Source: an uncultured Candidatus Saccharibacteria bacterium
Lineage (GTDB): Bacteria; Patescibacteriota; Minisyncoccia; Phycocordibacterales; JAKFXT01
Assembly (NCBI GenBank): GCA_964541455.1
Contig: CAZIPS010000003.1
Coordinates: 2,663 to 66,662, forward strand
Direction of reading: 5' to 3'
DNA: 64,000 nt
A program made the position numbers and the translations under genes. Shown in pieces: positions 21,748 to 63,747 of this stretch (its first letter is position 1; every line of letters starts with the position of its first letter). A model generated the notes under the pieces. That model did no database searches, was not told the origin of the DNA, and worked only from the letters and a program-made list of their open reading frames with translations.

Positions 21748-21749
21748 CT

Positions 21750-24218: not shown

Positions 24219-24233
24219 TATATAATAGAGAAT

Positions 24234-25397: not shown

Positions 25398-25529
25398 AGC
25401 GTAAGCTTTGTGTTGTTTATACCACCCACCCTTAATCAACACGACATATCCTCTTATCTGCGCGACAAAGAGCGCAATCTCTTATATTATTAGAGATACC
25501 AAGCGCATTGTCGTTTCAGTATTTTTTAT

Positions 25530-26051: not shown

Positions 26052-26056
26052 AACAT

Positions 26057-26692
26057 ATGGCTACTGAACAAACATCAGCAACACAAGAATTCGTCCCTAT
26101 CAAAGAGGTACGTGACGGCATTGTCCTCCTTAAAGACGGAGGTCTGCGTGCAATTCTTCTAACCTCTTCTATTAACTTCGCCCTCAAATCACAGGACGAG
26201 CAAAATTCCGTTATTTTCCAATTCCAAAACTTCCTTAACTCTTTAGACTTTCCTGTAGAAATCTTCATTCAATCAAGGAAACTCGATATTCGCCCCTACA
26301 TTGCTCTCCTCGAAGACCGCTATCGAGATCAAGTTAATGATCTACTTAAAATACAGACTCGTGAGTACATCGAGTTCATAAAAAGCTTTACTGAAAGTGC
26401 TAATATCATGACTAAAAGCTTCTTTATTATTGTCCCCTACAATCCAGCAAGCCTTACCGCTGAATCAGTTGGTGGGTTCTTTAGTAAGAAAAAAGATGAA
26501 GACAAAACAAAGGATGCGGCTGCACGCTTCGAAGAAAACCGCAGCCAACTCGAGCAACGCATTGCTGTTATCGAACAAGGACTTATACGTACAGGAGTTC
26601 GTGTCGTACAATTAGGTACTGAAGAAATTATTGAACTTTACTACAAGATCTTTAACCCTGGAGAGCAGGACAAGCCAATTAAGTTGCCATAA
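26057..26692 (+). CDS. Putative N-terminal segment of the VirB4-like ATPase (split gene), or a separate T4SS accessory protein
   Basis: 211 aa ending at a TAA 2 nt before the ATG of the Walker-A-containing ORF, which is in a different frame. Combined length of about 817 aa matches full-length VirB4/TrbE. Confidence 0.4.
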   Translation: MATEQTSATQEFVPIKEVRDGIVLLKDGGLRAILLTSSINFALKSQDEQNSVIFQFQNFLNSLDFPVEIFIQSRKLDIRPYIALLEDRYRDQVNDLLKIQTREYIEFIKSFTESANIMTKSFFIIVPYNPASLTAESVGGFFSKKKDEDKTKDAAARFEENRSQLEQRIAVIEQGLIRTGVRVVQLGTEEIIELYYKIFNPGEQDKPIKLP

Positions 26693-26694
26693 TT

Positions 26695-28515: not shown

Positions 28516-28520
28516 TATTC

Positions 28521-29192
28521 ATGCCTCCCGAGCTTAAAGAAAATCGAATACCCACTCATACTGCGGGGTTTATGCTCGCCGTAGCCGCTTTTTTTGACCT
28601 TTTACAAATATTTTTTAACCTTATTCTAATCGGTTTTCTCATAAACTGGACGATTACCCTTATTTCATTTTTAACCTTTTTTGTTTGGTTTAAACTTTAT
28701 GGTGTAAACCTAGGCGATAGCGCTAAGAAAATAGCGCTTTGGCTCACCGACTATGCCTTCGATATTTTTAGTGGAGGGATTTTCCCTTCGATTTTTATTA
28801 GCACCCTTATCACTATTCTTATAGTTAAGTCAGACGATGCGCTTCGTAACCAAGGTATTGACCTCAACCTCTCAACCTCTGCCTCTTATCGCAAAAAAGT
28901 GGCGGAAAACAGGAGGGCATACCAAGCATCACTACAAAGTAACGAAGAGGAGAGTGCAGAGGGTGGGGAAGAGTCTCCCGAGCGTTTCAAAGAAACATTA
29001 TCTCGTGTTTCCCGTAGTGGAGCAGTCCCAGGGAACGAGAAAGGGGCTGCTACCACACGGGTACCCCTCACCTCAAGCGCCCCCACAGTTATCCCAAACA
29101 ATAATCAAAAAACAGAAAATAATAGCGGAATTCTTGGTAGAATAAATAGAACTTCAAACAAAAGCAGTGAACCCTATGTTAAAGCCGTTTAA
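28521..29192 (+). CDS. Hypothetical polytopic membrane protein (223 aa) in the T4SS-like cluster
   Basis: At least 3 TM helices followed by a charged C-terminal tail. Overlaps the next gene by about 26 nt. Confidence 0.45.
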   Translation: MPPELKENRIPTHTAGFMLAVAAFFDLLQIFFNLILIGFLINWTITLISFLTFFVWFKLYGVNLGDSAKKIALWLTDYAFDIFSGGIFPSIFISTLITILIVKSDDALRNQGIDLNLSTSASYRKKVAENRRAYQASLQSNEEESAEGGEESPERFKETLSRVSRSGAVPGNEKGAATTRVPLTSSAPTVIPNNNQKTENNSGILGRINRTSNKSSEPYVKAV

Positions 29193-30195
29193 TATATACC
29201 GCTCTCTTAAAAAAAGCCTTGTTTTTTTAGCGCTTTTTATGCCTTTTGTTTTTGCACGCGCCGAAGCTTCTCTTACTCCCTATGCTGAGGGAGTAAGTAC
29301 TGTTGTTACCCCCCAAAATCCTGGCCCTAATACCCTTATAACTATCCAACTGCAAAGTTCATTGGTGAACCTTGAGGCCTCGACTGTTATTTGGAGCGTT
29401 AACGGTAAGGTTATTCAATCGGGTAAAGATAGTCGCAGCTTTTCCCTTCGCCTTGGCGGTATAGGGAGTAAGAGTGTTGTTGATATCTATATCAAAAGTG
29501 ATAATTTTGGCACTATCAGCAAAACTCTAACTTTTGCCCCAACAAGTGTTGAACTCCTTTACCAAGCCTCTTCTTATACCCCACCCTTCTACAAAGGAAA
29601 GGCGCTCATCCCCTCGGAAGGCGTTGTTACCCTCTACGCACTTCCAAACTTTAAAACAAGTTCTGGATCAATTCCTCAAACAGCAAGTCTTGTTTTTACA
29701 TGGAAAAAGGATGGGGTTGTTGACGGAAATAATTCTGGACTTGGAAAAAATAGCTATCGCTATGTTAATGGAAGACTACCAGAAGATGGTCCTTCAATTG
29801 AAGTCTCTGTTGTTGATCCTAAGAGTAACTTACAAGGCTATGCCGCCTTTGCTGCCTCAACAGTTAACCCTGAAGTTGTTTTTTACGAGAATAACCCCAT
29901 TTTAGGAGTTAACCTCAATCAAAGTATTCAGAAGGACTACGCCCTTACCAAGCAAGAACTTTCTCTTATTGCCTACCCTTATTACTTTGGTACCAAAAAT
30001 AGAAATGCTCTAGGGCTTTCCTATACTTGGAATATCAACGATAACCCGGTTGCAAACAGTGCATCTGACAAGGGAACATTAACCGTGCGTAGTCCTGGGG
30101 GGAAGGGGGTTGCAAACATTTCACTTGGTGTTGAGAATAAACTAAGACTCCTTCAAACAGCGTCAAGTATTCTTTCTATTACCTACGGTCAATAA
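29167..30195 (+). CDS. Hypothetical secreted protein (342 aa), probably beta-rich
   Basis: Signal peptide (LVFLALFMPFVFARAEAS) and an Ig- or beta-sandwich-like composition. Confidence 0.45.
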   Translation: MNPMLKPFNIYRSLKKSLVFLALFMPFVFARAEASLTPYAEGVSTVVTPQNPGPNTLITIQLQSSLVNLEASTVIWSVNGKVIQSGKDSRSFSLRLGGIGSKSVVDIYIKSDNFGTISKTLTFAPTSVELLYQASSYTPPFYKGKALIPSEGVVTLYALPNFKTSSGSIPQTASLVFTWKKDGVVDGNNSGLGKNSYRYVNGRLPEDGPSIEVSVVDPKSNLQGYAAFAASTVNPEVVFYENNPILGVNLNQSIQKDYALTKQELSLIAYPYYFGTKNRNALGLSYTWNINDNPVANSASDKGTLTVRSPGGKGVANISLGVENKLRLLQTASSILSITYGQ

Positions 30196-30199
30196 TTTT

Positions 30200-30832
30200 A
30201 TGAAAAAATTTCACCCACATCTTCCACGCCCTTCTGTGTTAGCGATATTTTTCGTTTCTTTTGTTCCTTTTGCTTCACTTTTTGCTGCAACTGGCGACTA
30301 CCAATTACTTGCCCCCCTTCCTTCTTTTGGTTCTTCATACAATCCAGGACTTTTTGTAAACTACGTCCAAACTTTTATTAAACTTTCAATCACTCTTTCA
30401 GCTATTTTAGCGGTTGCTTTTATCACTATAGGTGGCTTTCAGTGGATGGGGGGAGATTCAATGCAAATGAAGTCTGATGGTAGGAAAAAGATAGAAGATG
30501 CTGTACTTGGCCTTGTTATATTAGGAGCTTCTTTTCTTATTCTTAATACCATTAACCCTGCGCTTCTCAGCTTTAAACTAGAGGTTCCTACTCTCATTAC
30601 TGGAGACACGTCCAACCAAACACAAACAAGTTACCAAGTTGATGATCTAACTAATGTTGGTCAGCAAATTCAAAACCAAATGAATCAGAATCCAAACGCT
30701 TCACCAACAGTTCAAATACGAAGTGGGACAGCTGATGAACAAAGTAATATCAGTGCTCAATGTAAGGCAAATAAACCAGGGTCAATCGGTGCCATAAAAG
30801 ACCCTACAGGGAAGTTTTATACTTGTATGTAA
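30200..30832 (+). CDS. VirB2/TrbC-like pilin subunit candidate
   Basis: 210 aa with a signal peptide, then two hydrophobic helices (IKLSITLSAILAVAFITIGGFQWMGG ... AVLGLVILGASFLILNTI) typical of T4SS pilins, and a C-terminal extension. Confidence 0.5.
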   Translation: MKKFHPHLPRPSVLAIFFVSFVPFASLFAATGDYQLLAPLPSFGSSYNPGLFVNYVQTFIKLSITLSAILAVAFITIGGFQWMGGDSMQMKSDGRKKIEDAVLGLVILGASFLILNTINPALLSFKLEVPTLITGDTSNQTQTSYQVDDLTNVGQQIQNQMNQNPNASPTVQIRSGTADEQSNISAQCKANKPGSIGAIKDPTGKFYTCM

Positions 30833-30835
30833 TAT

Positions 30836-32116
30836 ATGTCTAAAACTACAGCTATTAGTATCGTTATTGGTTTCATTCTCCTTTTGGGTGGGGGGTTAGC
30901 TTATTGGTACTACACTATAGGTCCTAAAAATCCAAGTCAACAAAACCCCCAAACAAACACCGGGGGCAATAACCTTTTCCCGTTTGGGAACACTAATCAA
31001 TCAAATAATGGCACCACTTCAACAAGCACCAATCAAACTGTAGTGAGTAAAGAACCCTCTCCCCAAGTTCGTAAGGTGTCAGCTACCCCAATTGCCGGCT
31101 TTTCTCCTCTAAATGATAAAACGTTAGGGGCGTCAGTCCGCTATATGGAAGTTGAAACAGGCAACATCTATGAAGCCCCTCTCCAAGTACTTTCAACTCG
31201 ACGCATCAGTAACACCACTATTCCAAAAGTACGAAGTGTCCTTTGGCTTCCGCAAGCGAGAGCTTTTATTGCTCAATACCTTGGTGGCGATGATGAGACG
31301 ATCCAGAGTTTTTACGGTGATATTAACCCTCCACAGAACGAAGGACAGGAAGGTAACGTAACAGGGAAGTTTATGGATGATGGCATTACCGCACTTGCCT
31401 CACTTACCCCGTTTTCTGCGAGCACTACCCTTAAAAATCCTGGTAAAATTTTCTATCTTAAAAACACCACAAACGGTGCGGAGGGTTTCAGTGCCTTACA
31501 AAATGGTAGTAAACCAACTTCCGTATTTAACTCTCCACTTTCTGAATGGCTTCTTCTTAACAGTGGGGGAGACGCCCTTTTCCTTCAAACTAAGTCCTCC
31601 GCACTTGCTTCCTCGTATCTTTTTAGTCTAAACCCTTCAACAGGCGCTTTGAGTAAAGTGCTTGGAAACATTGTTGGCCTCTCTTCATTACCAAACCAAA
31701 AGGGGGATATGGTGCTTTATTCCGAAACACTAAACAAGAAACCTCTACTTCACCTCTACAATGTAGGTAAAAATACTTTCCAAACCATTCCTCTTAATAC
31801 CTTTGCTGACAAATGCGCATGGCTTGAAAGTACTACCACTAAAGCAACAAACTCCTCACGCATCTATTGTGGCGTTCCTTCTTTAATGCTTTCACAAGTC
31901 CTATACCCTGATAGTTGGTACCAAGGAAAGACAACTTTTAATGATGACATTTGGGAGATCAACCCAACAACACTTGAGTTAAACAAACTTGTTCCACTTG
32001 TTGATAGTGGGTCATACCTCGATGTTTGGAACCCTTCCTTAAGTAGCGATAGCGCCTATTTTATCTTTATAAACAAAAGGGATTTAACTTTGTGGAGTAT
32101 TAAGCTAAGGGGGTAG
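30836..32116 (+). CDS. Hypothetical exported protein with an N-terminal TM anchor (426 aa), last gene of the T4SS-like block
   Basis: N-terminal TM helix, a Gln/Asn/Thr-rich linker and a large extracellular domain. Confidence 0.45.
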   Translation: MSKTTAISIVIGFILLLGGGLAYWYYTIGPKNPSQQNPQTNTGGNNLFPFGNTNQSNNGTTSTSTNQTVVSKEPSPQVRKVSATPIAGFSPLNDKTLGASVRYMEVETGNIYEAPLQVLSTRRISNTTIPKVRSVLWLPQARAFIAQYLGGDDETIQSFYGDINPPQNEGQEGNVTGKFMDDGITALASLTPFSASTTLKNPGKIFYLKNTTNGAEGFSALQNGSKPTSVFNSPLSEWLLLNSGGDALFLQTKSSALASSYLFSLNPSTGALSKVLGNIVGLSSLPNQKGDMVLYSETLNKKPLLHLYNVGKNTFQTIPLNTFADKCAWLESTTTKATNSSRIYCGVPSLMLSQVLYPDSWYQGKTTFNDDIWEINPTTLELNKLVPLVDSGSYLDVWNPSLSSDSAYFIFINKRDLTLWSIKLRG

Positions 32117-33974: not shown

Positions 33975-35315
33975 ATGCTTGATAACAAACAATTGTGGGA
34001 AAGTGTTTTAACTGATATTGAGCAAAATGTTTCAAAGGCGACCTTTACTACTTGGTTTAAAGATACAGGAATAATGAAACAAGATGAGGGGGTGGTGTTC
34101 CTTTCAGTCCCTAACCAATTTGTAAAAGAGTGGCTTTATAATAAATACCATAAGACTATTTTAAAAAACCTTCGAGATTTAAACGAACAAGTCCGTAATA
34201 TTGAATATGTGGTTAACAAGGAACCACCTAAGATGGTCGAGACTATCCGAAAGGTCGACAACCCCACTAATGAGCTCCCCCTTGCTGACCATTATGTTAA
34301 TAAAGAAGATAATCTAAACCCTCGCTATACATTCGACTCTTTTGTTGTGGGATCTTTTAATGATATGGCCTTTGCCGCTGCTCAAGCGGTTATGAAAAAA
34401 CCTGGTATTGCGTACAACCCTCTTTTTATCTATGGAAATACTGGGCATGGGAAAACACACTTAATTCAAGCAATAGGGAATTATATTAAGCACGCTTCTC
34501 CAAACAATAAGGTGTACTATATTACTTCCGAAAATTTCTACCTTGGGCTTGTTAATGCAATGCAAGAAAACAAAATTCTTTTGTTTAAAGAAAAGTACCG
34601 TAAATACGATGTTTTTATTATGGATGACGTACAGTTTTTATCTAATAAAGAAAAAACTCAAGAAGAACTTTTTCATCTTTTTAACACCCTCTATGATAAT
34701 AATAAACAAATTATATTCTCTTCAGATAAACATATAAACCAAATCCCTAATTTAGAGGATAGAATTAAATCTCGCTTTGGAGCAGGGATGATTGTTGATA
34801 TTCAGGCCCCTGACTATGATTCTCGTGTCGCAATTATCAAAACAAAGTGTGCTGTACAAGGGATTCTTCTCCCTGAGGAAATAGTGTCTTACCTCGCTGC
34901 TTCTGATAACAGTATCCGTGAGTTAGAGGGGGCCTTAAACACCATTACCTACCAAATCCAACTTAAAAATAAAGTCCTTTCGTTAGCTGAGATAAAAAAC
35001 ATTATTAAAGAGACGAGTAAACCTAAAAAAATGTTTTCTGTTAAGGAAATCATAAAAACTATCGCTGATTTTTACGACATCCCTGAAACAAGTATTTACG
35101 AAAAAACAAGAAGAAAAGAAGTGGTAAAACCAAGGCAAATTATTATGTATATCTTAAGAGAAGATTTTAAGGTGTCATATCCAACTATCGGAGAAAAGTT
35201 GGGGGGAAGAGATCATACCACTGTTATCCACTCATGTGAAAAAATTAAACATGATATTAAAGAGGATCTTCAGTTAAGTGAGGAAATTGATCGGATTAAG
35301 ACATTATTAAAATAA
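33975..35315 (+). CDS. dnaA: Chromosomal replication initiator protein DnaA
   Basis: 446 aa. Walker A (IYGNTGHGKTHL), sensor/Box VII, and a C-terminal DNA-binding domain (KPRQIIMYILREDFKVSYPTIGEKLGGRDHTTVIHSCEKI). Confidence 0.97.
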   Translation: MLDNKQLWESVLTDIEQNVSKATFTTWFKDTGIMKQDEGVVFLSVPNQFVKEWLYNKYHKTILKNLRDLNEQVRNIEYVVNKEPPKMVETIRKVDNPTNELPLADHYVNKEDNLNPRYTFDSFVVGSFNDMAFAAAQAVMKKPGIAYNPLFIYGNTGHGKTHLIQAIGNYIKHASPNNKVYYITSENFYLGLVNAMQENKILLFKEKYRKYDVFIMDDVQFLSNKEKTQEELFHLFNTLYDNNKQIIFSSDKHINQIPNLEDRIKSRFGAGMIVDIQAPDYDSRVAIIKTKCAVQGILLPEEIVSYLAASDNSIRELEGALNTITYQIQLKNKVLSLAEIKNIIKETSKPKKMFSVKEIIKTIADFYDIPETSIYEKTRRKEVVKPRQIIMYILREDFKVSYPTIGEKLGGRDHTTVIHSCEKIKHDIKEDLQLSEEIDRIKTLLK

Positions 35316-35507: not shown

Positions 35508-36602
35508 ATGAAATTTGAATGTAATAAAGAAAAACTACAAGAGTTAGTAGTTAAAATAGAAAAAACAACAAGTCGGAACGCAACACTTCCCATTCTTAGT
35601 TGTATTCTTTTGGTGGTTAAAGATAAAACACTTACACTTAAAGCCACTAATTTAGAAGTAGGAAGTGAGCTTATACTCCCTGTAAGGGTGGAAAAAGAAG
35701 GAGTGGTTGCAGTTTCTGGTTCTCTTTTTTCTCAAATCCTCTCCTCCTTAAAAACAAATAAAAACCTTACTATAGAAGAGAAGGATGGGGGGGTAGAAAT
35801 AAAAACAATAGAAACAACTGTTTTTTTAAAAACAAATCCTTATGAAGAGTTTCCGCTTATCCCTCGTATTGAGGCAGATAAAAAAATAGTTATAAAAGTT
35901 AAAGATATTATTCTTGGGATAAAAAGTGTGGTGTATAGTGCTTCTCTTTCTACTATTAAACCAGAACTTGGAAGCATCTATATTTACCAAGAAACAAATA
36001 CACTTATTTTTGTTGCAACAGACTCTTTTAGATTGGCAGAGAAAAAAATTGTTGTTAAAAATATAGAACAATTTCCTTCAATACTTATTCCCTACAAAAA
36101 TGCCTTAGAAATTGTAAGGCTTTTTGAAGGTGTTGATGAAGAGGTGGAGTTTTTAATCACTAAAAATCAAATTAGTCTCGAACATCAACATATATTTATT
36201 ACCTCAAGAGTTGTTGATGGAGTCTTTCCTGATTACACACAAATAATACCAAAAGAAAATATCGCCACAGCGTTAGTGTTAAAACAAGATATTATTAACG
36301 GTATTAAAAGTCTCTCAGTGTTTTCTGATAAGTTTAATCAAATTATTTTTACTCTTACAAAAGAGGGAATAGTGCTTGAAACGAAAAATAACGATATTGG
36401 AGAAGGAAAAACAGTAGTGGTGGGGAAAGTAACAGGAGAGATGGTTAAAGTTAAGTTTAATCAAAAATATATCACTGATGCTTTTTCTACACTAACCGAT
36501 GAATCAATCCTCCTTTCTTTTTCTGAAGAAAGAAAACCACTTGTTATAGAAGGTGCTTCAAATAAGAGCTTTAAGTATCTTGTTATGCCAATGAATAACT
36601 AA
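35508..36602 (+). CDS. dnaN: DNA polymerase III beta sliding clamp
   Basis: 364 aa in a three-domain clamp architecture, conserved position after dnaA, and C-terminal motif LVMPM. Confidence 0.9.
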   Translation: MKFECNKEKLQELVVKIEKTTSRNATLPILSCILLVVKDKTLTLKATNLEVGSELILPVRVEKEGVVAVSGSLFSQILSSLKTNKNLTIEEKDGGVEIKTIETTVFLKTNPYEEFPLIPRIEADKKIVIKVKDIILGIKSVVYSASLSTIKPELGSIYIYQETNTLIFVATDSFRLAEKKIVVKNIEQFPSILIPYKNALEIVRLFEGVDEEVEFLITKNQISLEHQHIFITSRVVDGVFPDYTQIIPKENIATALVLKQDIINGIKSLSVFSDKFNQIIFTLTKEGIVLETKNNDIGEGKTVVVGKVTGEMVKVKFNQKYITDAFSTLTDESILLSFSEERKPLVIEGASNKSFKYLVMPMNN

Positions 36603-43635: not shown

Positions 43636-45303
43636 TTAGAGACCGAGGTCAATTACACGAGCAAGTTCTTCAAGTGTGGTGGTGCCTTGTAGTATTTTTA
43701 TAAAGCCATCTTGCTTTAGACTAAGCATGTGTTGCGATGCGGCTGCTTTCATAATATCTTCTTCGCCCGGGTTTTCATTAATCGCTTTGTTTACTTCCGG
43801 TGTCATGAGAATCGCTTCAAAAATTCCAACGCGCCCTTTGTAGCCAACACCACTACACTCGGAGCACCCCACCGCTTCAAACACATGCTCCATCTGTAGG
43901 TTATCTGGTTTTTCTGTGGCCTCTGCAAGTTCTGTCTCTATGATGGTTTTAGTTTCAGGGGGGAGAGGAATTTCTTTGGCACAATTTTTGCAAAGTTTTC
44001 TTACGAGGCGTTGTGCGATAGCAACATTTACCGCAGAGCTAATCACTTTTGGATTAACCCCAAGATCGATAAGGCGGGGAAAGGCTCCTGCGGCGTTATT
44101 GGTGTGGAGTGTTGAAAGCACAAGGTGTCCGGTGAGCCCCGCGTTAATAGCAATCTCTGCAGTTTCATCATCACGTATTTCACCCACCATGATGACATCA
44201 GGATCTTGGCGAAGGACCGAACGAAGTCCTTGTGAAAAGTTATAATTTTTATGATCTACCTGTGTCTGGACGATACCAGGGAGGTGATACTCGATAGGGT
44301 CCTCGATAGTAATGATTTTTATTTCAGGGTTGTGCACTTTTCGCAAGAAGGCGTAGAGCGTGGTGGTCTTACCACTTCCTGTGGGGCCGGTGTTTAAGAT
44401 CATACCGTTTGGACGGTGGATTTCATGATCCAATATTTTAAAAAGTTTTGGAGAAATGCCGAGTTCCTCCATGGGAACTTGGATAGACTTTGGGTTCAGG
44501 ATACGAAGCACGATTGATTCGTTGTATGCCCCAGGAAGTAGCGAGGTGCGGATTTCAATTTCACTATCTGCTATTTTGATGGAGAAGCGCCCATCTTGTG
44601 CCTCATTTTTAACGTTAAGCTTAAGGCGAGAAAGAAGTTTGATGCGAGAGAGGAGAAGCGCAAAGGTCTCATGGTCGAAGTTTAAAATATGCGTAAGCAC
44701 GCCATCCAGGCGATAACGAAGTCGCACATACTCTTCTTCGGGTTCAACGTGTATGTCGGACGCCCCCATAGAAAGTGCACCAGCGAGCACAATTTCAAGA
44801 ATACGGGAAATACGATACGCCTTTTTTTCAACAAGCACATCTTCGATAAGTTTTTGCACGTCGTCAAGCGAGCGCACGCGCGAAACAAAGCCCTCTATTT
44901 CTTCGCTTGATATATCAAGTACTCCCGCCTTACTTTCCGAAGCAAAGGATATTTCTTTATACCTCCCCCATGCGCGCTCAAGACTTCCTTTAGAGACAAT
45001 ATAGGGAGTGACGTTATAGTTGCGGCGTTTTAGGTCTTCAAGTATCGCCCTAGTTTCGTCGCTATCGGGGGCGAGCACGGCAATCCGAAGCTTTCTTCCG
45101 GTGGCGTCAAAAATCGCTACTTTAGCAGCGCGTGCCTCGTCTTCCGGTATGAGTCGTAGCGCATCGGTCTCTATAGACATGCGGGAGAGGTCGAGGTACT
45201 CGATGCCATATTTCCCCGAAAGGATCATGGCAAGCTCCTCCTCTTCTTTTTTGAGCAGTTCGTCTATTTTCTTATCCTGCTTGTCTTCGTCAAATGTAAG
45301 CAT
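43636..45303 (-). CDS. Type II/IV secretion system ATPase, GspE/PilB family
   Basis: 555 aa with an N-terminal GSPII_E_N-like domain, Walker A (TGPTGSGKTTTLYAFL), Asp box, Walker B (IMVGEIRDDETA) and a tetracysteine motif (CKNCAKE...CSECSGVG). Confidence 0.9.
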   Translation of the reverse strand: MLTFDEDKQDKKIDELLKKEEEELAMILSGKYGIEYLDLSRMSIETDALRLIPEDEARAAKVAIFDATGRKLRIAVLAPDSDETRAILEDLKRRNYNVTPYIVSKGSLERAWGRYKEISFASESKAGVLDISSEEIEGFVSRVRSLDDVQKLIEDVLVEKKAYRISRILEIVLAGALSMGASDIHVEPEEEYVRLRYRLDGVLTHILNFDHETFALLLSRIKLLSRLKLNVKNEAQDGRFSIKIADSEIEIRTSLLPGAYNESIVLRILNPKSIQVPMEELGISPKLFKILDHEIHRPNGMILNTGPTGSGKTTTLYAFLRKVHNPEIKIITIEDPIEYHLPGIVQTQVDHKNYNFSQGLRSVLRQDPDVIMVGEIRDDETAEIAINAGLTGHLVLSTLHTNNAAGAFPRLIDLGVNPKVISSAVNVAIAQRLVRKLCKNCAKEIPLPPETKTIIETELAEATEKPDNLQMEHVFEAVGCSECSGVGYKGRVGIFEAILMTPEVNKAINENPGEEDIMKAAASQHMLSLKQDGFIKILQGTTTLEELARVIDLGL

Positions 45304-50906: not shown

Positions 50907-51070
50907 GGGGTACAGGGATCTTTCGCTGTACGAATAGTATAGCTTCCCCATTTTTTGTAACAGGAATTTGTCGTCACGGATAATTTTGTTTTCGTCAAAA
51001 CAAAATTTCCTTGACCACGACTCGCGGTTTTGCGTACTCGCAAAACATCGCTCCGTCTCGGACTTGTAGT

Positions 51071-51098
51071 AAAAAACAGTGCGCAGGCACTGTTTTTT
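51071..51098. terminator. Palindromic terminator hairpin downstream of tRNA-Lys; an identical element recurs at 63283-63320
   Basis: AAAAAACAGTGC-GCAG-GCACTGTTTTTT. The reverse-complement-identical copy follows tRNA-Arg(TCT). Confidence 0.75.
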
Positions 51099-51104
51099 CT
51101 CAAG

Positions 51105-51220: not shown

Positions 51221-51670
51221 CTAGAGAGGGAGGTCAAAGGCATACATCCCAGGGCCAATGAAGAGAAGTGAGAAAGTAATAATAAAAAGGAGGGCGTAAA
51301 ATGAGCGAGGGTGAGGGGTTACCGATTTTCCTATGAGATTAAGGACGAGGAGTTTGAGCGCAATTAAGGCTCCAATAAGAGCGCCTATTTGGGTGTAGAG
51401 GCCAGCAAGGAGGGAGAGGGCAACTATAGTTTCAAATGCTGCAAGAAGGATAAGGAAAAAGAGAGGGCGAAAATACTTAAACTTTCTAATATCAGAAAGA
51501 ATGCCACTGCGTTCCTTGGTAAGCGTGCGGTATCCAAGAGTAAGGAAGGTGATGCCGATAGAGACACGAACAATAGTGATACCGAAAAATCCGTAGGCAA
51601 GAAGTGTTGGAAATATGCTTAACATGGAGATTATTCTAGCATAAGAGGCATTTGTGCTATAGTCTCCCAA
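51221..51670 (-). CDS. DoxX-like small membrane protein
   Basis: 149 aa with four TM helices of DoxX-like composition. The true start may be the internal Met. Confidence 0.4.
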   Translation of the reverse strand: MGDYSTNASYARIISMLSIFPTLLAYGFFGITIVRVSIGITFLTLGYRTLTKERSGILSDIRKFKYFRPLFFLILLAAFETIVALSLLAGLYTQIGALIGALIALKLLVLNLIGKSVTPHPRSFYALLFIITFSLLFIGPGMYAFDLPL

Positions 51671-54038: not shown

Positions 54039-54986
54039 ATGTATAAATACCCGCATACGACTTTTTTCTTCGCTACTCTTTTTGTAGCTAGTTTTTTAAG
54101 TGTGTTTTTAGGAAGTAAGCTCCCACTGCTCTATGAGAAAGGAACGGACATGCTTGCAGCGGTCTTTTTTACACCAAGTATTACCGTGCCAGAGCTCAAA
54201 GCAGCATACAATGGGACACACCCAACACACCGCACACTTAAGATACTCATTGTTCCAGGACACGAACCTTTTACTGGTGGAACTGAATATGGGGGAGTGA
54301 CGGAGCGGAACTTAACGGTGTTATTGGCAAACGATCTAAGAGACATATTAGGGAAAAATAAAAAGTATGAAGTCTTTGTAACAAGAAATCAGCTTTCTTG
54401 GCATGAACCACTTGTGTCGTACTTTAAAAATCAGGGTGAGGCCATTGATTCATGGCGCCGCGAAAAGCAACTTTCCATGAATGCGCTTGTTGCAAGTGGA
54501 ACAGTGACTCTCTCTATACCTATTGTCCATGGGAAAGCCAATAGTGATGATGCAAGAAGGCTCTATGGAGTGCAAAAGTGGGCGAATGAGCAGGACTATG
54601 ATGTAATCCTCCATATACATATAAATGATTATCCAAGGAAGGGAAAAGAAAAGAAATATACAGGACTCGCACTTTATGTGCCGGAGCATCAATACTCAAA
54701 TGCCGATGCTTCTCAAACACTCGCAGCATATATGTTTAAGGAGCTTAATACGGTGATAGGAACAAGTACACTAAAAGAGGAAAAAAGTGGGGTGGTTGAG
54801 GATCAAGAGCTTATTGCTATTGGCCGCTTTAATACAGCAGATACTGCCAATGTACTCATAGAATATGGGTATATTTACGAACCCCAGTATCAAGGAACTA
54901 ATGAGGTGCGAGACCAAGCGCTTTATACTTATGCGCTTAAAACGTACCAAGGACTCGAGGATTTTTTTGGAGATACTAAAAACTAA
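54039..54986 (+). CDS. N-acetylmuramoyl-L-alanine amidase (Amidase_3-like) with an N-terminal TM anchor
   Basis: LKILIVPGHEPFTGGTEYGGVTERNLTVLLANDL matches the amidase_3 Zn-binding start and a downstream HIHINDYP motif. Start set at the Met after the mutM overlap. The ORF track starts at 53844. Confidence 0.6.
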   Translation: MYKYPHTTFFFATLFVASFLSVFLGSKLPLLYEKGTDMLAAVFFTPSITVPELKAAYNGTHPTHRTLKILIVPGHEPFTGGTEYGGVTERNLTVLLANDLRDILGKNKKYEVFVTRNQLSWHEPLVSYFKNQGEAIDSWRREKQLSMNALVASGTVTLSIPIVHGKANSDDARRLYGVQKWANEQDYDVILHIHINDYPRKGKEKKYTGLALYVPEHQYSNADASQTLAAYMFKELNTVIGTSTLKEEKSGVVEDQELIAIGRFNTADTANVLIEYGYIYEPQYQGTNEVRDQALYTYALKTYQGLEDFFGDTKN

Positions 54987-56245
54987 ACTAGTTTTTGAAG
55001 TTCTTCTCTAGCTATTTCAGCGTCACTCCATGGAGTCCTTTTGTTTTTTGCTTCCATAATGTAAGGGTCGGTGCCCTTGCCACTAATGAGGACGGTTGAC
55101 CCAAGGTTTGCATGACGCAGTGCGGTGCGAATAGCTTCTCTGCGGTCCATGATAATCTCTATTTTTTTGTTCGTGATGCCTGCTTTAATATCAGCAACAA
55201 TGCTTTCGGGATCTTCGTCATACGGATCTTCATTGGTGAGGATAATTTCATCGCAATACGAGCTCGCCACTTTCCCCATCTTTTCGCGTTTTCCCTTATC
55301 TCTCCCGCCCCCTGTGCCACCTAGAACACAAATGCGACGCGTGCCACTGAAGGCCTCATAGAGTTTGGTGAGTGAGTCGACTGTATGGGCGTAGTCAACA
55401 ACGACAGTAAAATTTTGGCCAGCCTCGATGCGCTGTACTCGCCCAAGCGCACCTTTAAAAGATTCTACTGCATGCAATAGAACATCTGTTGGAATATGAA
55501 GTGCTTCTCCTAAGGTAAGTGCTGCAAGAGCGTTTAACATATTAAATGTTCCAGGAAGTGTAGTATGCACAGTGCGCCCATTCCACGAAAAGTATCCTCC
55601 TGAGTGGCCAAGTTCATATGGCTTAGCTTGCTCGAGACGGTAGGTATATTTTTTTGAATAGGGGAGTGAAGCAAAGAGTGAGGACTCAGCTTCGTCTCCA
55701 TTTAGAATCGCAATGCGTGTGTGTTTGCCACTTTGAGCACAGCGTTTTGCAATTTCAAACTTTGCTGCACGATACTTTTCGTATGATCCATGGCGTTCGA
55801 TATGTTCAGGAGAGAGGTTGGTGAAAACAAAGGCATCAAGATAGATAAAACGATGGCGGAATTGGAGCACCGCTTCGCTACTCATCTCTATAACTGCATA
55901 GGTACAGCCTTTCTTTATGGCGCGACGCAAAAGCTTTTGCAAAAAGAAGCGTCCAGGGGTTGTCATTTTAAAAAGGTTTCGCTCACTTTTTTCACCAATT
56001 TTGAATTGGATAGTTGAAACAAGTGCCGTTTTGTACCCCGCTTCAGTGAGAAGGTGGTGGATATATTCACTGGTGGTTGTTTTGCCTTTAGTTCCTGTGA
56101 CCCCAATTACAAATATTTCTTTAGAAGGAAATCTGTAGAGGATGGCGCCTGTGAGGGCGAGGAGGTAATGATACGCAGGCTGGAAAAAACGGTAGATAGA
56201 TTTCGGAATCAGTTTTTCTATAAAGCGAAGAATTTTTTCAAGCAT
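54983..56245 (-). CDS. Mur ligase family protein, MurE-like (lacks the N-terminal domain)
   Basis: Central-domain P-loop (IGVTGTKGKTTTSEYI) and C-terminal DYAHTVDSL motif typical of MurE. At 420 aa it is shorter than canonical MurE. Confidence 0.7.
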   Translation of the reverse strand: MLEKILRFIEKLIPKSIYRFFQPAYHYLLALTGAILYRFPSKEIFVIGVTGTKGKTTTSEYIHHLLTEAGYKTALVSTIQFKIGEKSERNLFKMTTPGRFFLQKLLRRAIKKGCTYAVIEMSSEAVLQFRHRFIYLDAFVFTNLSPEHIERHGSYEKYRAAKFEIAKRCAQSGKHTRIAILNGDEAESSLFASLPYSKKYTYRLEQAKPYELGHSGGYFSWNGRTVHTTLPGTFNMLNALAALTLGEALHIPTDVLLHAVESFKGALGRVQRIEAGQNFTVVVDYAHTVDSLTKLYEAFSGTRRICVLGGTGGGRDKGKREKMGKVASSYCDEIILTNEDPYDEDPESIVADIKAGITNKKIEIIMDRREAIRTALRHANLGSTVLISGKGTDPYIMEAKNKRTPWSDAEIAREELQKLV

Positions 56246-57188: not shown

Positions 57189-57368
57189 AAAATCCCCTTT
57201 CGGGGTTTTTTATTTTGGTCACAAGTCATTAAGTATTTTATTTCGCCCTGCAAGCAGGTTTCATAAAATACTAAGTGCTCGCGACCCCACCTCATATCGC
57301 TAAAGCGATATATTCCGGTTCACAAAAACTAAAAATGTGAAGCAGTTCACATTTTCTTAACGTTTTTG

Positions 57369-57440
57369 TGCTCCCGGTTGGAATTGAACCAGCATCGTCT
57401 CCTTCGGAGGGAGATATTCTATCCGTTGAACTACGGGAGC
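57369..57440 (-). tRNA. tRNA-Arg (anticodon CCG)
   Basis: Manual fold: acceptor GCUCCCG/CGGGAGC, anticodon stem UCUCC/GGAGA, loop CUCCGAA, T-loop GGUUCAAUUCC. A terminator hairpin AAAATGTGAA-GCAG-TTCACATTTT lies immediately downstream. Confidence 0.8.
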
Positions 57441-57447
57441 TTTATCC

Positions 57448-57885
57448 CTAGTGGTGTGCGAGGGACATAATAGCAATATAGCGAATATAGAACTCAAAAG
57501 TGACTGCCGCGATTAAGATAAGGATAAAAAAGGCACCAATTTTCTTATACCCATGTTCTCTAAAAAGGGCAATGAGGGCATAGATGAAAGAGAGGGCATA
57601 GCCGAAGATAAAGCCCCACGAAAGATGTCTAAAGAGTGGAGTAAAAATATCTTTAATAAAAAAAAGACTCATGAGAAAGCAAGTACCTGCAAAGAAGAAG
57701 AAAAAAGAAGCAAAGAAAAGAGGGAGAGATCGTCTTTGAGGTTTCATAGAGATAGTATAGCGTATGTTGGTTAAAAAAAGGGCTAGTAGTGCGAGGGAAG
57801 CACCCATTACACGGACAGTACACCTTTTGTGTCTGACTTTGCCAAAAAGCTCGCTCCCATATACCCAAGGCTTTCGATCTTGCAC
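57448..57885 (-). CDS. Hypothetical membrane protein (145 aa)
   Basis: 3-4 predicted TM helices. No recognisable family. The start is uncertain. Confidence 0.35.
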   Translation of the reverse strand: MQDRKPWVYGSELFGKVRHKRCTVRVMGASLALLALFLTNIRYTISMKPQRRSLPLFFASFFFFFAGTCFLMSLFFIKDIFTPLFRHLSWGFIFGYALSFIYALIALFREHGYKKIGAFFILILIAAVTFEFYIRYIAIMSLAHH

Positions 57886-58039
57886 GGAGTGTGTATGGGC
57901 ATAAGGAATCTCGACCTACGGTCGCAGGTGGTTTTCTATTTTTTTGCAATTTGATTGCTCAAAAATAAAGAAAACCCTTTCGATTCCTGCATGCAAGCAA
58001 AGCAGTTTGCTTGCTCTCGGGGAACAAAATGTTCCATTT

Positions 58040-58114
58040 TGGTCCCCTCGGCAGGAATCGAACCTGCATTGCAAGATCCGCAATCTTGCGTCCTATCCAT
58101 TGAACGACGAGGGG
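58040..58114 (-). tRNA. tRNA-Arg (anticodon read as GCG; CCA encoded)
   Basis: Manual fold: acceptor CCCCUCG/CGAGGGG plus ACCA, anticodon stem CAAGA/UCUUG, loop UUGCGGA, T-loop GGUUCGAUUCC. An unmodified G34 is unusual for bacterial Arg tRNA. Needs tRNAscan confirmation. Confidence 0.65.
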
Positions 58115-58174: not shown

Positions 58175-58630
58175 TTAAATGCCCAACCACTCAGCGAGCA
58201 TATAAGTGAGAGGTTCGTGGTGGGGGACTTCTTTAAGTTTGTGGATGAGTACTTCTTTTATATTGTCCCCGTTGTACTTTCGTATCGGAATAACCATAAG
58301 GGAGCCGAAAAATTTCTTTGGAGCCAAGATAAGTTTGTCTTCATGGTGCTGTTTATGGATGAAAAAGGATTCAAGTTCTTCGTAATGGTAAAAATCATCT
58401 CCAACTCCCACTCCTCTTTCGTTAATGGTGTAGAGCACTTCTTTAGGGAGGCGCACTGCAAAGAGGCCGATACTAATAGCACCTAAGATAAGAATAGCTG
58501 CAAGAAGGACATTGCTAAAATAAATAGAAACTCCCGCACTTATAAGGGTAATAAGTCCAAGTCCCCAAAACCAATCAACTGTTTTTGGTCGATGTGCGTA
58601 TTCGTATTCACTCCAACTAAGTTCCTCCAT
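58175..58630 (-). CDS. Hypothetical membrane protein (151 aa, 2 TM)
   Basis: Two adjacent TM helices near the N-terminus. No recognisable family. Confidence 0.4.
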   Translation of the reverse strand: MEELSWSEYEYAHRPKTVDWFWGLGLITLISAGVSIYFSNVLLAAILILGAISIGLFAVRLPKEVLYTINERGVGVGDDFYHYEELESFFIHKQHHEDKLILAPKKFFGSLMVIPIRKYNGDNIKEVLIHKLKEVPHHEPLTYMLAEWLGI

Positions 58631-58672
58631 GGAATTAGTGTAGCATGGGAAAGAATTATTTTATGGTAAGCG
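58629..58672 (+). repeat. 44-bp perfect direct repeat, copy 1 (ATGGAATTAGTGTAGCATGGGAAAGAATTATTTTATGGTAAGCG)
   Basis: Identical to 59504-59547. The two copies bracket the 273-aa secreted-protein gene. Confidence 0.9.
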
Positions 58673-59477
58673 AAACAGTAAGCGTTGTTTCGGGAAGAAT
58701 GTGACCCTCTGCGTCACGTAGAGAAACGAGCACCCTATATAATTGACCGGGCGCGTATGTTCCTGAGGATGTGTAACTATTAGGCTCGGTGTATGACCAT
58801 TTTCCATTTTTTACTTCTACGTCTTTGGAACTTAGGTTCACCCAATCACCTTCTTTTGCGGCGTTATAGGATTGGATGGTAACTGAAACTGTGTGGACCG
58901 AAGGGGCAGCGCTTCCTGTTATAGTTGGAATAGCTGAGGATGAGACAAGAGATGCTTTGTCGATAATTATAAATTGAGCCTTTACGGTTAATTTTGTTGA
59001 GGCCAAAAGCGACCCATCTTCTTCATTATAAAGGGCGACAGTGTATATACCCGGTTCAAGGATGACAGCACCACTCGGAGCTACAATGCCTGCATACCAG
59101 CGGCCATTTTTGATAGTAATCCCACCAGCGCCACTTGATTCACCGAGAGCGTAGTTCGGCATAGAGTCAGGACCAATTCTTTTTTGTGGTGGGGTTACTT
59201 CGCCCTTACCAACAAGGATAGAGACGGATGAGACTCCGCTAGGCATTGCCCCCTCAAGCGCTGCGTTTTGTGTGAGAATTAGGGTATCTTTTATTAAAGA
59301 AGTATCACTGTTTGTATTAGAAGGGGACTGTGTATTTTCTGCAAATAAACCACTATCTTGTTCAGCTGTTTGAACGGTTTTTTGGCTTAAGGTTACGTTT
59401 GTTTGATTAAGGCTCCACCATCTATATGTAAAAAGTGCTATTAAAAGAGCAACGCTTATCAAAATAGTCTTTTTCAT
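58656..59477 (-). CDS. Hypothetical secreted protein (273 aa) flanked by 44-bp direct repeats
   Basis: Signal peptide MKKTILISVALLIALFTY and a Ser/Thr/Gly-rich beta-type composition. No recognisable domain. Confidence 0.5.
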   Translation of the reverse strand: MKKTILISVALLIALFTYRWWSLNQTNVTLSQKTVQTAEQDSGLFAENTQSPSNTNSDTSLIKDTLILTQNAALEGAMPSGVSSVSILVGKGEVTPPQKRIGPDSMPNYALGESSGAGGITIKNGRWYAGIVAPSGAVILEPGIYTVALYNEEDGSLLASTKLTVKAQFIIIDKASLVSSSAIPTITGSAAPSVHTVSVTIQSYNAAKEGDWVNLSSKDVEVKNGKWSYTEPNSYTSSGTYAPGQLYRVLVSLRDAEGHILPETTLTVSLTIK

Positions 59478-59503
59478 ATGTTACTTAAAGTTAATGCTAC
59501 CGA

Positions 59504-59547
59504 TGGAATTAGTGTAGCATGGGAAAGAATTATTTTATGGTAAGCGG
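59504..59547 (+). repeat. 44-bp perfect direct repeat, copy 2
   Basis: Identical to 58629-58672. It lies about 25 bp from a duplicated 13-nt tRNA-Ser 3' end fragment (59573-59585). Confidence 0.9.
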
Positions 59548-59604
59548 TGAAGTGAGTGTTGTTAGATCACAAAGCGGAGGCGGTGGGTCAACTAAGTCTT
59601 ACAG

Positions 59605-59689
59605 CGGAGGCGGTGAGATTCGAACTCACGGTACCTTTCAGCACTCCTGTTTTCAAGACAGGTGCGATAGACCACTCTGCCACGCCTCC
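59605..59689 (-). tRNA. tRNA-Ser (anticodon UGA), long variable arm
   Basis: Acceptor GGAGGCG/CGCCUCC, D-arm GGCAGAGUGGUCUAUCGC, anticodon loop CUUGAAA, extended variable arm, T-loop GAGUUCGAAUCUC. Confidence 0.85.
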
Positions 59690-59846
59690 GCTCTAATACT
59701 TAGTTTTTAAATGAACTCACGTTTCGTTACACGAACGGTAGACCTTATGTATGTGTGGATACTACACCCACCAACTTACACTAAAAGTAGATTATTCTCA
59801 ACTACTTTCTTTTTCTAACGTATCGCTATAAGCTGGGGTGTATACG

Positions 59847-63281: not shown

Positions 63282-63282
63282 T

Positions 63283-63320
63283 ACAAGAAAAAACAGTGCC
63301 TGCGCACTGTTTTTTCTTGT
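63283..63320. terminator. Palindromic terminator hairpin after tRNA-Arg(UCU); same element as 51071-51098
   Basis: ACAAGAAAAAACAGTGC-CTGC-GCACTGTTTTTTCTTGT. Confidence 0.75.
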
Positions 63321-63546
63321 ATGGTCCGGCCGCAGCTATATTTTGCTAGCGAGCAAAATTGTGCGAGGCGGGGTCGCGAAAAAAGCGAGTGGCGACGAGC
63401 TTTTATTCGTGACACAGAGAAGTAAAGAAACAAAGCGTCCACGCGGAACATTGCAAGCGACGGCGCGCAATGTATCTGTGACACAGAGTGGGGGGGTTCA
63501 CAGAGATAGTAAAAAACCGCCCGAAGGCGGTCGGTGAGTGGAGGGG

Positions 63547-63747
63547 TTATTCTCGAAATTCCCTCCACCAGATGATGGTCCAGGCGAGGCTTCCTATGAC
63601 GAAAGCCCCGGCGCTTATTGAAAGGAACCATACAAGTTCAGCTCCTTTGGGGGCAAGGATGCTGCCTGCCAAAAGCCCCAGAAAAAGGGAAAGCACAATG
63701 GCCGAGACGTACGGGCCCCACGCTTCCCCACGAATTATGTGTCTCAT
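63547..63747 (-). CDS. Small two-TM membrane protein, GC-rich cassette E (66 aa from ATG; the ORF track extends to an upstream TTG at 63801)
   Basis: MRHIIRGEAWGPYVSAIVLSLFLGLLAGSILAPKGAELVWFLSISAGAFVIGSLAWTIIWWREFRE. SD GGAGGA 5 nt upstream, sigma70-like promoter and a terminator CCGCC-TTCG-GGCGG-TTTTTT after the stop. Confidence 0.55.
   Translation of the reverse strand: MRHIIRGEAWGPYVSAIVLSLFLGLLAGSILAPKGAELVWFLSISAGAFVIGSLAWTIIWWREFRE

Follow-up and report, generated by a model that had tools for sequence, protein, structure and literature searches.

The results of this analysis suggest that a single foreign gene was probably gained, recently, between a tRNA-Ser gene and the resident gene of a 151-aa membrane protein, and that non-site-specific recombination at this place probably duplicated the promoter of the resident gene. 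The locus lies in a 64-kb stretch of DNA, which was analysed as a whole and is called the window below. The gene, which encodes a 273-aa protein, stands between two identical 44-nt sequences, and closely related strains carry the same locus with one 44-nt sequence and without the gene.

Anatomy of the locus

The 44-nt sequence (ATGGAATTAGTGTAGCATGGGAAAGAATTATTTTATGGTAAGCG) is present exactly twice in the window, and the two copies agree at 44 of 44 positions. No further copy was found in the window when up to three mismatches were allowed, and the expectation from shuffled sequence was likewise zero. Perfect 44-bp direct repeats had already been reported in a preliminary description of this DNA, and a sequence search of the window recovered them; copy 1 lies where it had been placed, while copy 2, given there as 59504–59547, was one base off and lies at 59503–59546. 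Beyond the 44-mer, the two places remain similar over another 17 bases, of which 11 match; the chance probability of this extension is ca. 0.001–0.005. In total, 61 nt are alike at 90% (58629–58689 and 59503–59563). All genes at the locus are on the minus strand (Table 1). The same description had the repeats flank the 273-aa gene. They do bracket it, but they do not flank it strictly, as copy 1 contains the last five codons of the gene and its stop codon. Four independent assemblies, from two assemblers, agree fully in the structure of repeats and gene, as do L074 and L080; this structure is therefore not an assembly artefact. No other gene bracketed by long repeats was found in the window. 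The Amidase_3 gene (54039–54986), which is missing from the 77% relative L005, has no flanking repeat.

Table 1 Features of the locus, with positions counted from the first letter of the window
Feature	Position	Strand	Description
151-aa gene	58175..58630	-	Conserved membrane protein; resident gene whose promoter is present in duplicate
44-mer copy 1	58629..58672	-	Predicted promoter, -42 to +2, of the 151-aa gene; extended -10 box TGCTACACT at 58637-58645
273-aa ORF	58656..59477	-	Last five codons and stop codon supplied by 44-mer copy 1
h1'	58673..58689	-	Native 3' coding end of the 273-aa gene, AACAACGCTTACTGTTT; encodes the conserved last strand of the family, TTLTV
Inserted upstream DNA	59478..59502	-	25 nt, CGGTAGCATTAACTTTAAGTAACAT, preceding the 273-aa start codon; missing from the empty alleles
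44-mer copy 2	59503..59546	-	Duplicate of the predicted promoter, -42 to +2; extended -10 box TGCTACACT at 59511-59519; exact repeat
h1	59547..59563	-	Spacer of resident DNA, 17 nt, AACAACACTCACTTCAC, directly upstream of promoter copy 2
13-nt copy of tRNA-Ser 3' end	59573..59585	-	CACCGCCTCCGCT; 17 nt downstream of the tRNA 3' end on the tRNA strand; exact duplicate
tRNA-Ser(UGA)	59604..59689	-	No encoded CCA; ARAGORN, Rfam tRNA 56 bits

The 44-mer corresponds to positions -42 to +2 of the predicted promoter of the 151-aa gene. The extended -10 motif of this promoter (TGnTAnnnT) ends 6 nt before the ATG at 58630, and because of this short distance the mRNA of the 151-aa gene is predicted to be leaderless, with the A of the start codon as the transcription start. 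The TGnTAnnnT layout was seen at 15 of the 64 genes of the window, which are rough gene calls, against 0.06 expected per distance bin, and the motif is kept, ending 6–9 nt before the ATG, upstream of the 151-aa orthologues in L005, L012 and L015. By motif and distance the 151-aa gene would belong to the leaderless extended -10 genes, which it also resembles in the conservation of this layout among orthologues; it differs from them in that the whole unit from -42 to +2 is copied for a second gene, which is predicted to have a leader. A simple sigma-70 scan misses this promoter because it has no -35 match. Purifying selection was considered as the cause of the perfect identity of the two copies and was rejected, the orthologous promoter of L005 being only ca. 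70% identical (by eye) and carrying indels.

Orthologues of the 151-aa protein show 77%, 60% and 50% identity, and 33–41% in other CPR lineages. Downstream of their genes lies tRNA-Arg(GCG); the L011–L013 group is the exception, as this tRNA is on the opposite strand there. The genes around the locus (RuvX, a tRNA-binding protein, PilM, RuvA, S20 and a Mur ligase) are housekeeping genes and are syntenic with those of relatives.

The 273-aa protein is composed of an N-terminal membrane helix, a disordered linker and two beta-sandwich (Ig-like) domains, and it contains an internal repeat. An AlphaFold2 model (pLDDT 73) gave Ig-like matches by Foldseek, and no Pfam family was matched. A full HMMER search returned distant domain matches only (30–53% identical over residues 70–167). 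These homologues and the confident fold show that the gene is real, and its product is predicted to be a surface protein that is anchored in the membrane and carries the two beta-sandwich domains. When the source of the gene was sought by word-index search, the protein itself was the sole match; there were no phage or viral matches, and the window and the fetched loci contained no paralogue. Its 90% cluster holds NCBI/ENA sequences of filled strains only. The homologues P0006 and P0007 are both on short contigs, whose context is uninformative for this locus. The GC content of the insert (0.42–0.455 vs 0.39–0.48 in the surroundings) gave no compositional sign of foreign origin, and the argument for such an origin is therefore drawn only from the distribution of the gene. 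No Shine-Dalgarno motif was found in the 25 nt before the 273-aa start codon, which is normal here, as the motif precedes only 7 of the 64 genes of the window.

Filled and empty alleles

Four strains of ca. 99% identity (L073, L076, L077 and L078) have an empty site, in which the tRNA-Ser gene, the 13-nt copy of its 3' end, one 44-mer and the 151-aa gene are present. These empty alleles match the window at 98.8–100% and equal the window minus exactly 874 bp, that is, minus one repeat unit. In L078, the only 44-mer is identical to that of the window and position 59503 is joined directly to 58628; the other three strains have the same structure. The left flank of copy 2 joins the ancestral tRNA side directly in the empty alleles. 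Filled and empty alleles have identical flanks from 59820 to 57916, and the event is therefore considered recent. These alleles bear out the earlier view of the locus as a discrete repeat-flanked cassette or excision-prone unit: with repeats that are resident sequence and a sister allele holding one of them, it is a repeat-flanked insertion/deletion polymorphism.

The comparison with relatives, which had been proposed as a check, showed that the gene is present or absent among strains of ca. 99% identity and missing from more distant ones. L005 is collinear with the window at 75% nucleotide identity and lacks ca. 900 nt, the 273-aa gene included. In the L011–L013 group, no such gene was called and no similarity to it was detected, and no 273-like gene was found upstream of the 151-aa homologue in L015, L017 or L018. 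The spacer h1 is unchanged in the empty-site alleles of L073 and L078 and is missing from L005.

Since the relatives are without the gene, the filled contigs are near-clonal and the empty alleles occur on two different backgrounds, gain would be favoured over loss, a direction that rests on parsimony and on only ca. 12 kb of empty-strain sequence. In the opposite direction, the filled form with two repeats would be ancestral in the species and would become empty by homologous deletion between the 44-bp repeats. Direct repeats of such length promote deletion, and the empty allele looks exactly as recombination between the repeats predicts, down to its keeping the h1 of the upstream copy. However, all outgroups lack the gene, the distribution of filled and empty alleles over the backgrounds speaks against it, and the gene must in any case have been inserted after the divergence from L005, so that this course adds a step. 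We regard it as unlikely, though worth keeping in view.

How the gene may have been joined

The course of events that we propose is as follows. A segment of 874 bp (equivalently 58673–59546 or 58629–59502) would have been gained between the tRNA-Ser gene and the 151-aa gene and would have brought one foreign gene, that of the membrane-anchored surface protein. The insertion would have duplicated 44 bp of resident DNA, from -42 to +2 of the leaderless extended -10 promoter. Copy 1 would still drive the 151-aa gene from its start codon, and copy 2, now in front of the newcomer, would transcribe the 273-aa gene from a predicted start at 59504 with a 27-nt leader. The reading frame of the newcomer would run into the downstream promoter copy and take its last five codons and stop from there. 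The joining itself was most likely illegitimate, or a template switch, guided by microhomology; at one junction, the right-hand one, there is patchy homology between the 3' end of the incoming gene (h1') and the resident spacer (h1), which match at 11 of 17 positions. Through the two 44-bp repeats, ordinary homologous recombination could remove the unit again, and the empty allele of the sister strains would be either the product of such recombination or the state before the insertion.

The spacer h1 reads in frame TTLTSPLTIK followed by a stop codon, whereas the 273-aa gene ends in TTLTVSLTIK and a stop codon. Because of this resemblance, h1 could be the relic of an earlier member of the family at this site rather than a stretch of microhomology. 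Tandem duplication followed by partial deletion was tried as the main model and rejected, since it needs three events and leaves the coexistence of 44 identical positions with six differences in the adjoining 17 nt unexplained.

Further points count against the proposed course. To our knowledge, the footprint of a transposase never comes close to 44 bp, the length of the target duplication here, and a duplication of this length is unusual for illegitimate insertion. Besides, no donor sequence was found, the best homologues being partial and at most 53% identical. Illegitimate and homology-facilitated illegitimate recombination capture foreign DNA in transformable bacteria (PMC3240628), and such capture has been proposed for the displacement of gene modules at Vibrio T6SS loci (PMC5361080). 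The present locus resembles these cases in that a single non-mobile gene is found at a conserved locus without a recombinase and that one junction is partly homologous to resident DNA; h1, as a possible leftover of a 3' end, resembles the orphaned 3' regions of PMC5361080. It differs from them in that the classic outcome of illegitimate capture deletes resident DNA, whereas 44 bp are duplicated here, and in that no long homologous anchor is demonstrable, the donor not having been found.

A circle that carried the 273-aa gene and a copy of the 44-bp promoter could also have integrated, in the manner of Campbell, by one RecA-mediated crossover at the chromosomal 44-mer; the circle could have come, for instance, from a related strain whose DNA has the gene directly beside the 44-mer promoter. 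We consider this unlikely, to about the same degree as the reversed direction. As in Campbell-type integration, the direct repeats are exact and equal to resident sequence, and the insertion is reversible to a precise empty site, the empty allele being the precise reciprocal product. The stop codon of the gene inside the repeat is what would be expected if gene and 44-mer were adjacent in the donor. On the other hand, a homology of 44 bp, all there is here, is near the lower limit for a RecA-dependent crossover. A donor in which the gene lies beside an identical 44-mer is required, and no such genome was found. The sharp end of identity at 44 bp, with the next 17 nt 35% diverged, is left unexplained, and the similarity at 11 of 17 positions past the repeat is not predicted. 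With one-sided homology in E. coli, most of the recovered recombinants had duplications of 109–950 bp and arose by a single crossover with a circular molecule (PMC3240628); that duplications flanking inserted DNA arose in this way favours a crossover with a circle and also counts against illegitimate joining.

Mobile-element machinery and the tRNA-Ser fragment

A third possibility, a decayed or trans-mobilised site-specific cassette that would resemble a cis-mobilisable element or an integron cassette, have the 44-mer as attachment site and depend on a recombinase encoded elsewhere, appears very improbable. Blocks of identity of tens of bp, shared by element and target, are typical of the attachment sites of tyrosine integrases, and the presence/absence polymorphism with its precise empty site would fit. 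A Xer-like recombinase does exist in the window (712–1629), but this was the sole Phage_integrase match among the 28 ORFs scanned and is 57 kb away; the nearby integrase that the preliminary description had thought worth looking for was not found, and the insert holds one ORF, which is not a recombinase. An integron cassette would be expected to end in an attC-like imperfect palindrome and to go with an IntI integrase and an attI site; however, neither an inverted repeat of at least 12 nt in or next to the 44-mer, nor an inverted-repeat core, nor any structure in the region, nor an integron integrase nearby was found. The 44-mer consists of ordinary promoter DNA of the resident gene, and relatives have the orthologous sequence. 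A second cassette or other use of the 44-mer was found neither in the window nor, with its 20-nt core, in one metagenome collection, where of 11 matches only that in L024 was from this organism and the rest were chance matches or unrelated promoters. The 44-mer is thus not the widespread promoter or terminator motif that would have spoken against a discrete unit: the class of promoter is common, and the 44-mer itself is at two places only. Neither terminal inverted repeats at the ends of the insert nor a transposase were found, no second copy of the gene was found, the 44-mer occurs only here, and the 44-bp duplication compares with 2–15 bp, and several copies, expected of a transposable element.

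The 13-mer AGCGGAGGCGGTG is present at 59573–59585 and 59603–59615 (0.04 expected by chance), and the duplication of the tRNA-Ser 3' end that had been described is thus present and exact. Homologous copies of the tRNA-Ser end, 14–16 nt long, were found in L005, L012 and the empty-site strains L073 and L078. The carriers of the fragment include relatives with 77% and 60% identity in the 151-aa protein, and neither these nor the empty-site strains have the 273-aa gene. Since every empty-site genome carries it, the fragment predates the insertion; it is an older scar that had no part in it. No 3'-end fragment was found at the other tRNAs here. No hairpin or terminator is formed by the second tRNA-end copy, and no RNA structure involves this copy or the 44-mer (z-scores ca. 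0 or positive). The 5' leader and 3' trailer of tRNA-Ser (59683–59705 and 59590–59612) lengthen its acceptor stem by ca. 16 bp (inverted repeat I1; fold z = -3.6).

The duplicated tRNA end had been taken as the signature of an integrase, so that the fragment would be the scar of an attachment site used by an integrase at tRNA-Ser. As in the tRNA islands of tyrosine integrases, the site adjoins a tRNA gene and a partial duplicate of the tRNA 3' end is present, an exact 13-nt copy 17 nt past the tRNA. Furthermore, IMG/VR viral contigs contain 42 stretches that match 21 nt at the 3' end of tRNA-Ser exactly, and many of these stretches lie close to a contig end; however, they share only 25–30 nt of the tRNA 3' end and so come from other tRNA-Ser genes, and they are therefore uninformative here. 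Unlike in such islands, the tRNA repeat is older than the gene and does not bracket it, both copies lying 17 nt apart on its upstream side; the repeat that does flank the gene is a promoter, and no integrase is nearby. This origin is thus the least credible of those considered, and the empty-site alleles with the fragment contradict it. As a caution, where a partial tRNA 3' duplicate lies close to a variable gene, the two need not be related.

We regard the locus as a case of ordinary gene gain and not as an island made by an integrase. The finding is sound but ordinary, and no new kind of mobile element or mechanism is revealed. The data show the anatomy of the locus, its presence/absence polymorphism, that the repeat is homologous to the region upstream of the resident gene and that the tRNA fragment is older; the activity of the promoters, gain as the direction and the way of joining are inferred. 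It does give a cleanly resolved gain of a single surface-protein gene in the ultra-small genomes of CPR/Patescibacteria, with filled and empty alleles of identical flanks. As surface proteins are the likely interface with the host, gain and loss at the level of strains are biologically relevant. By the duplication of the promoter, the newcomer would be expressible at once and the leaderless resident gene would be undisturbed.

A much bolder reading, which we hold to be a long shot, is that the spacer after tRNA-Ser is a recurrent capture site, where genes are joined exactly at +2 of the leaderless promoter and the whole promoter is duplicated. If so, it would offer CPR bacteria a "plug-and-play" route to expression, with the capture possibly linked to the open complex at the promoter or to a recombinase acting in trans, and h1 would be what is left of a previous cassette whose right-hand junction was the same. 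The same geometry, new DNA plus a partial duplicate of the old, would then also explain the tRNA-Ser and tRNA-Arg 3'-fragment scars of the clade. Scars of tRNA-Arg 3' fragments, like those of tRNA-Ser, were seen in this clade.

The repeat unit and its filled and empty alleles

The 44-bp direct repeats around the 273-aa gene are exact, and the second copy lies one base away from where the preliminary description had placed it. No other copy of the 44-mer was found in the window, even with three mismatches allowed, and shuffled sequences gave an expectation of 0 matches. Beyond the 44-mer, a further 17 bases are alike at 11 positions, giving 61 nt at 90% (chance P for the extension, about 0.001-0.005). 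One of these 17-nt segments, h1, belongs to the resident spacer beside copy 2, and the other, h1' (58673-58689), is the 3' coding end of the 273-aa gene. Four independent assemblies, made with two assemblers, and further contigs all gave the same structure base for base; thus, the repeat arrangement is not an assembly artefact.

Features of the locus in reading order (window coordinates)
Feature	From	To	Strand	Remark
tRNA-Ser(UGA)	59689	59604	minus	first in reading order
13-nt copy of tRNA 3' end	59585	59573	minus	after a 17-nt spacer
26-nt spacer			minus	its end is h1
h1	59563	59547	minus
44-mer copy 2	59546	59503	minus
25-nt leader segment			minus	between 44-mer copy 2 and the 273-aa ORF
273-aa ORF	59477	58656	minus	last five codons and stop inside 44-mer copy 1
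44-mer copy 1	58672	58629	minus
151-aa ORF	58630	58175	minus	ATG overlaps the final two bases of copy 1
tRNA-Arg(GCG)			minus	after the 151-aa ORF; last in reading order

The exact 151-aa protein was also found on contigs lacking the 273-aa gene, from strains about 99% identical to that of the window (L073, L076, L077 (JGI) and L078 (Logan)). Their order is tRNA-Ser, 13-mer, TTGTGATCT, h1, a single 44-mer, and the ATG of the 151-aa gene. BLAST joined 59503 straight to 58628, and the difference from the window is exactly one 874-bp repeat unit. The 44-mer is identical to that of the window in L076, L077 and L078 and carries one SNP in L073. Outside the insert, filled and empty alleles do not differ anywhere between 59820 and 57916, despite a divergence of about 0.8-1% farther out, indicating that the insertion or deletion was recent.

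In L005, a MAG labelled uncultured Candidatus Saccharibacteria, the 151-aa protein is 77% identical and the region is collinear at 75% nucleotide identity, without the about 900 nt that hold copy 2 and the 273-aa gene. In the L011-L013 group (60%), the interval from tRNA-Ser to the 151-aa gene has no called gene, and no similarity to the 273-aa protein was detectable. No 273-like gene lies upstream of the 151-aa homologue in L015 (labelled Taylorbacteria), L017 and L018 (33-41%); in L016 (labelled Campbellbacteria), the upstream sequence is too short to show either state. The 90% cluster of the 273-aa protein holds only NCBI/ENA-source sequences, and none from the JGI and Logan samples with the empty allele. 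A rival explanation is that the empty strains lost the gene by recombination between the 44-bp repeats, which would permit such reversion. Since the relatives lack the gene, the filled contigs are near-clonal, and two backgrounds occur among the empty alleles downstream of tRNA-Arg(GCG), parsimony favours a recent gain in the strain of the window.

The 273-aa protein has no Pfam family, and a word-index search retrieved only the protein itself. HMMER, run in full over 1.8 billion cluster representatives, gave 15 matches; the best, with 30-53% identity over residues about 70-167, are to small proteins that are secreted or membrane-anchored. The AlphaFold2 model (pLDDT 73) has an N-terminal helix, a disordered linker and two beta-sandwich domains, which are internal repeats; Foldseek matched it to Ig-like domains. 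The C-terminal ...ETTLTV aligns with the conserved last strand of the family, and h1' is thus native coding sequence. In GC content, the insert does not differ from the host, and no phage or viral relative was found. In another contig, L030 (139-570), a 143-aa homologue of the first domain stands alone between the C-terminus of the ATP synthase alpha subunit and the gamma subunit, both identified by reading the translations. The placement is a hint that short members of this gene family commonly sit squeezed between conserved genes.

The 44-mer as a predicted promoter

The 44-mer contains an extended -10 box, TGCTACACT, whose end lies 6 nt upstream of the start codon of the 151-aa gene. At this distance, transcription is predicted to start at the A of that codon, and the 151-aa mRNA would be leaderless. 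Among 64 genes crudely called from the window, TGnTAnnnT ends 6-12 nt upstream of the ATG in 15 (expectation, 0.06 per distance bin), and only 7 have a Shine-Dalgarno-like motif. Four of the five tRNA genes also seem, by eye and without scoring, to bear TGnTAnnnT upstream. Motif and position are kept upstream of the 151-aa orthologues in L005 (TGCTAAACT), L012 (TGCTACACT) and L015 (TGATACAAT). Since this layout recurs in the window and among orthologues, the 44-mer appears to correspond to -42 to +2 of the promoter class usual for this organism. A simple sigma-70 scan did not flag it because it has no -35 match.

Each gene would thus have its own -42 to +2 promoter copy, the 151-aa gene staying leaderless and the 273-aa gene being transcribed with a 27-nt leader. 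The latter has no Shine-Dalgarno motif, as is normal for this genome. Because the duplication ends at +2, the start codon is lost in copy 2 (ATC), and no spurious leaderless translation start would arise. The 273-aa reading frame would terminate in resident sequence (LTIK*).

Extended -10 boxes 6-12 nt before an ATG occur, for example, at 2425, 6932, 8338, 11610, 15499, 39465, 43636-45303, 50079, 51221-51625, 51671 and 54983-56245. Their presence at roughly one in four of these gene calls would imply widespread leaderless mRNAs.

Proposed origin of the insertion

The duplication is exactly 44 bp, and the adjoining 17 nt differ at six positions; in frame, h1 reads TTLTSPLTIK* and the gene TTLTVSLTIK*. 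These differences cannot have built up since so recent an event, so the h1/h1' resemblance is either microhomology by which the incoming 3' end came to be joined at the resident spacer, or what is left of an older family member. We favour a one-step illegitimate or template-switch insertion, in which synthesis or joining would exit resident DNA at +2 and return at the h1/44-mer boundary, duplicating the promoter. Among named processes, the nearest is homology-facilitated illegitimate recombination, which PMC3240628 describes and PMC5361080 invokes. As the main alternative, one crossover with a circle that already bore the 44-mer could have given the arrangement; in one experimental study (PMC3240628), duplications flanking inserts usually arose from single crossovers with circular molecules. 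However, this presupposes a hypothetical donor with the gene already beside an identical 44-mer.

Site-specific or transpositional insertion is unsupported, since the inserted DNA has no terminal inverted repeats, recombinase or other copies, and the only tyrosine recombinase among the 28 ORFs scanned is Xer-like and 57 kb away. The preliminary description had taken the repeats to suggest a small duplicated or integrated cassette or an excision-prone unit, and the tRNA-Ser 3'-end duplicate as a classic hallmark of integrase-mediated insertion. The duplicate (AGCGGAGGCGGTG, also at 59603-59615; 0.04 expected) is real. However, the partial tRNA-Ser end also occurs in the empty-site strains, and homologous 14-16-nt copies lie at similar distances in L005 (one mismatch) and L012 (exact); the fragment is therefore older than the 273-aa gene. 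It is also on the same side of that gene as the tRNA itself and does not bracket it. The cassette part of that reading is supported by the one-unit difference between filled and empty alleles, and the tRNA and integrase part is not supported. The locus, although well documented, is an ordinary case of gene gain at strain level in a CPR bacterium, accompanied by promoter duplication.

tRNA-linked scars and other variable regions

The tRNA-Ser fragment forms no hairpin or terminator, and no other tRNA in the compared loci has an equivalent 14-nt 3'-end copy within 120 nt. In L005 (6949-6988; cf. window 57368-57440), a displaced tRNA-Arg(CCG) 3' half follows the divergent tRNA-Arg(CCG) native to L005 at a distance of 22 nt and is identical at 24/24 positions to the tRNA-Arg(CCG) of the window. 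This second tRNA-end scar in the clade suggests whole-tRNA replacement with partial duplication. Such scars look like old replacement or integration scars with no link to the 44-mer unit. The tRNA-Ser 5' leader and 3' trailer (59683-59705 and 59590-59612) pair over 23 nt at 91% complementarity, which lengthens the acceptor stem, through the discriminator base, by about 16 bp (pre-tRNA fold z = -3.6). This extended stem, kept in L005 and not in L012, may be a double-strand-specific processing site.

A module is repeated after several tRNA genes (window 63282-63660 and 51013-51100; L005 6575-6706 and 1936-2114; L073 3593-3725). It consists of a shared terminator hairpin (AAAAAACAGTGC...GCACTGTTTTTT), GTCCGGCC, a hairpin and GCGAGGCGGGGTCGCG, with no Rfam match even at E <= 1. 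After tRNA-Arg(TCT), it continues into about 380 nt of GC-rich sequence, which CTTGTATGGTCC/GGAACCATACAAG closes. The window and L078 have one form of deletion of the copy that follows tRNA-Arg(GCG), and L073 has another. The spacer between tRNA-Arg(GCG) and tRNA-Arg(CCG) (57442-58042) is a second region that varies between strains: in the window and L078, it carries about 460 nt with a 99-145-aa hydrophobic ORF (57448-57885), L005 has no counterpart, and L073 lacks most of the region together with the 99-aa gene call.

An Amidase_3 (N-acetylmuramoyl-L-alanine amidase) gene at 54039-54986, between the Mur ligase and Fpg genes, is absent from L005, and its flanks have no long direct repeats. 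A mostly unannotated gene block (20134-32116), a few kb from dnaA (33975-35315) and dnaN (35508-36602), includes a TraG P-loop/VirB4-like ATPase (26695-28515) and could be a type IV secretion-like or conjugative module.
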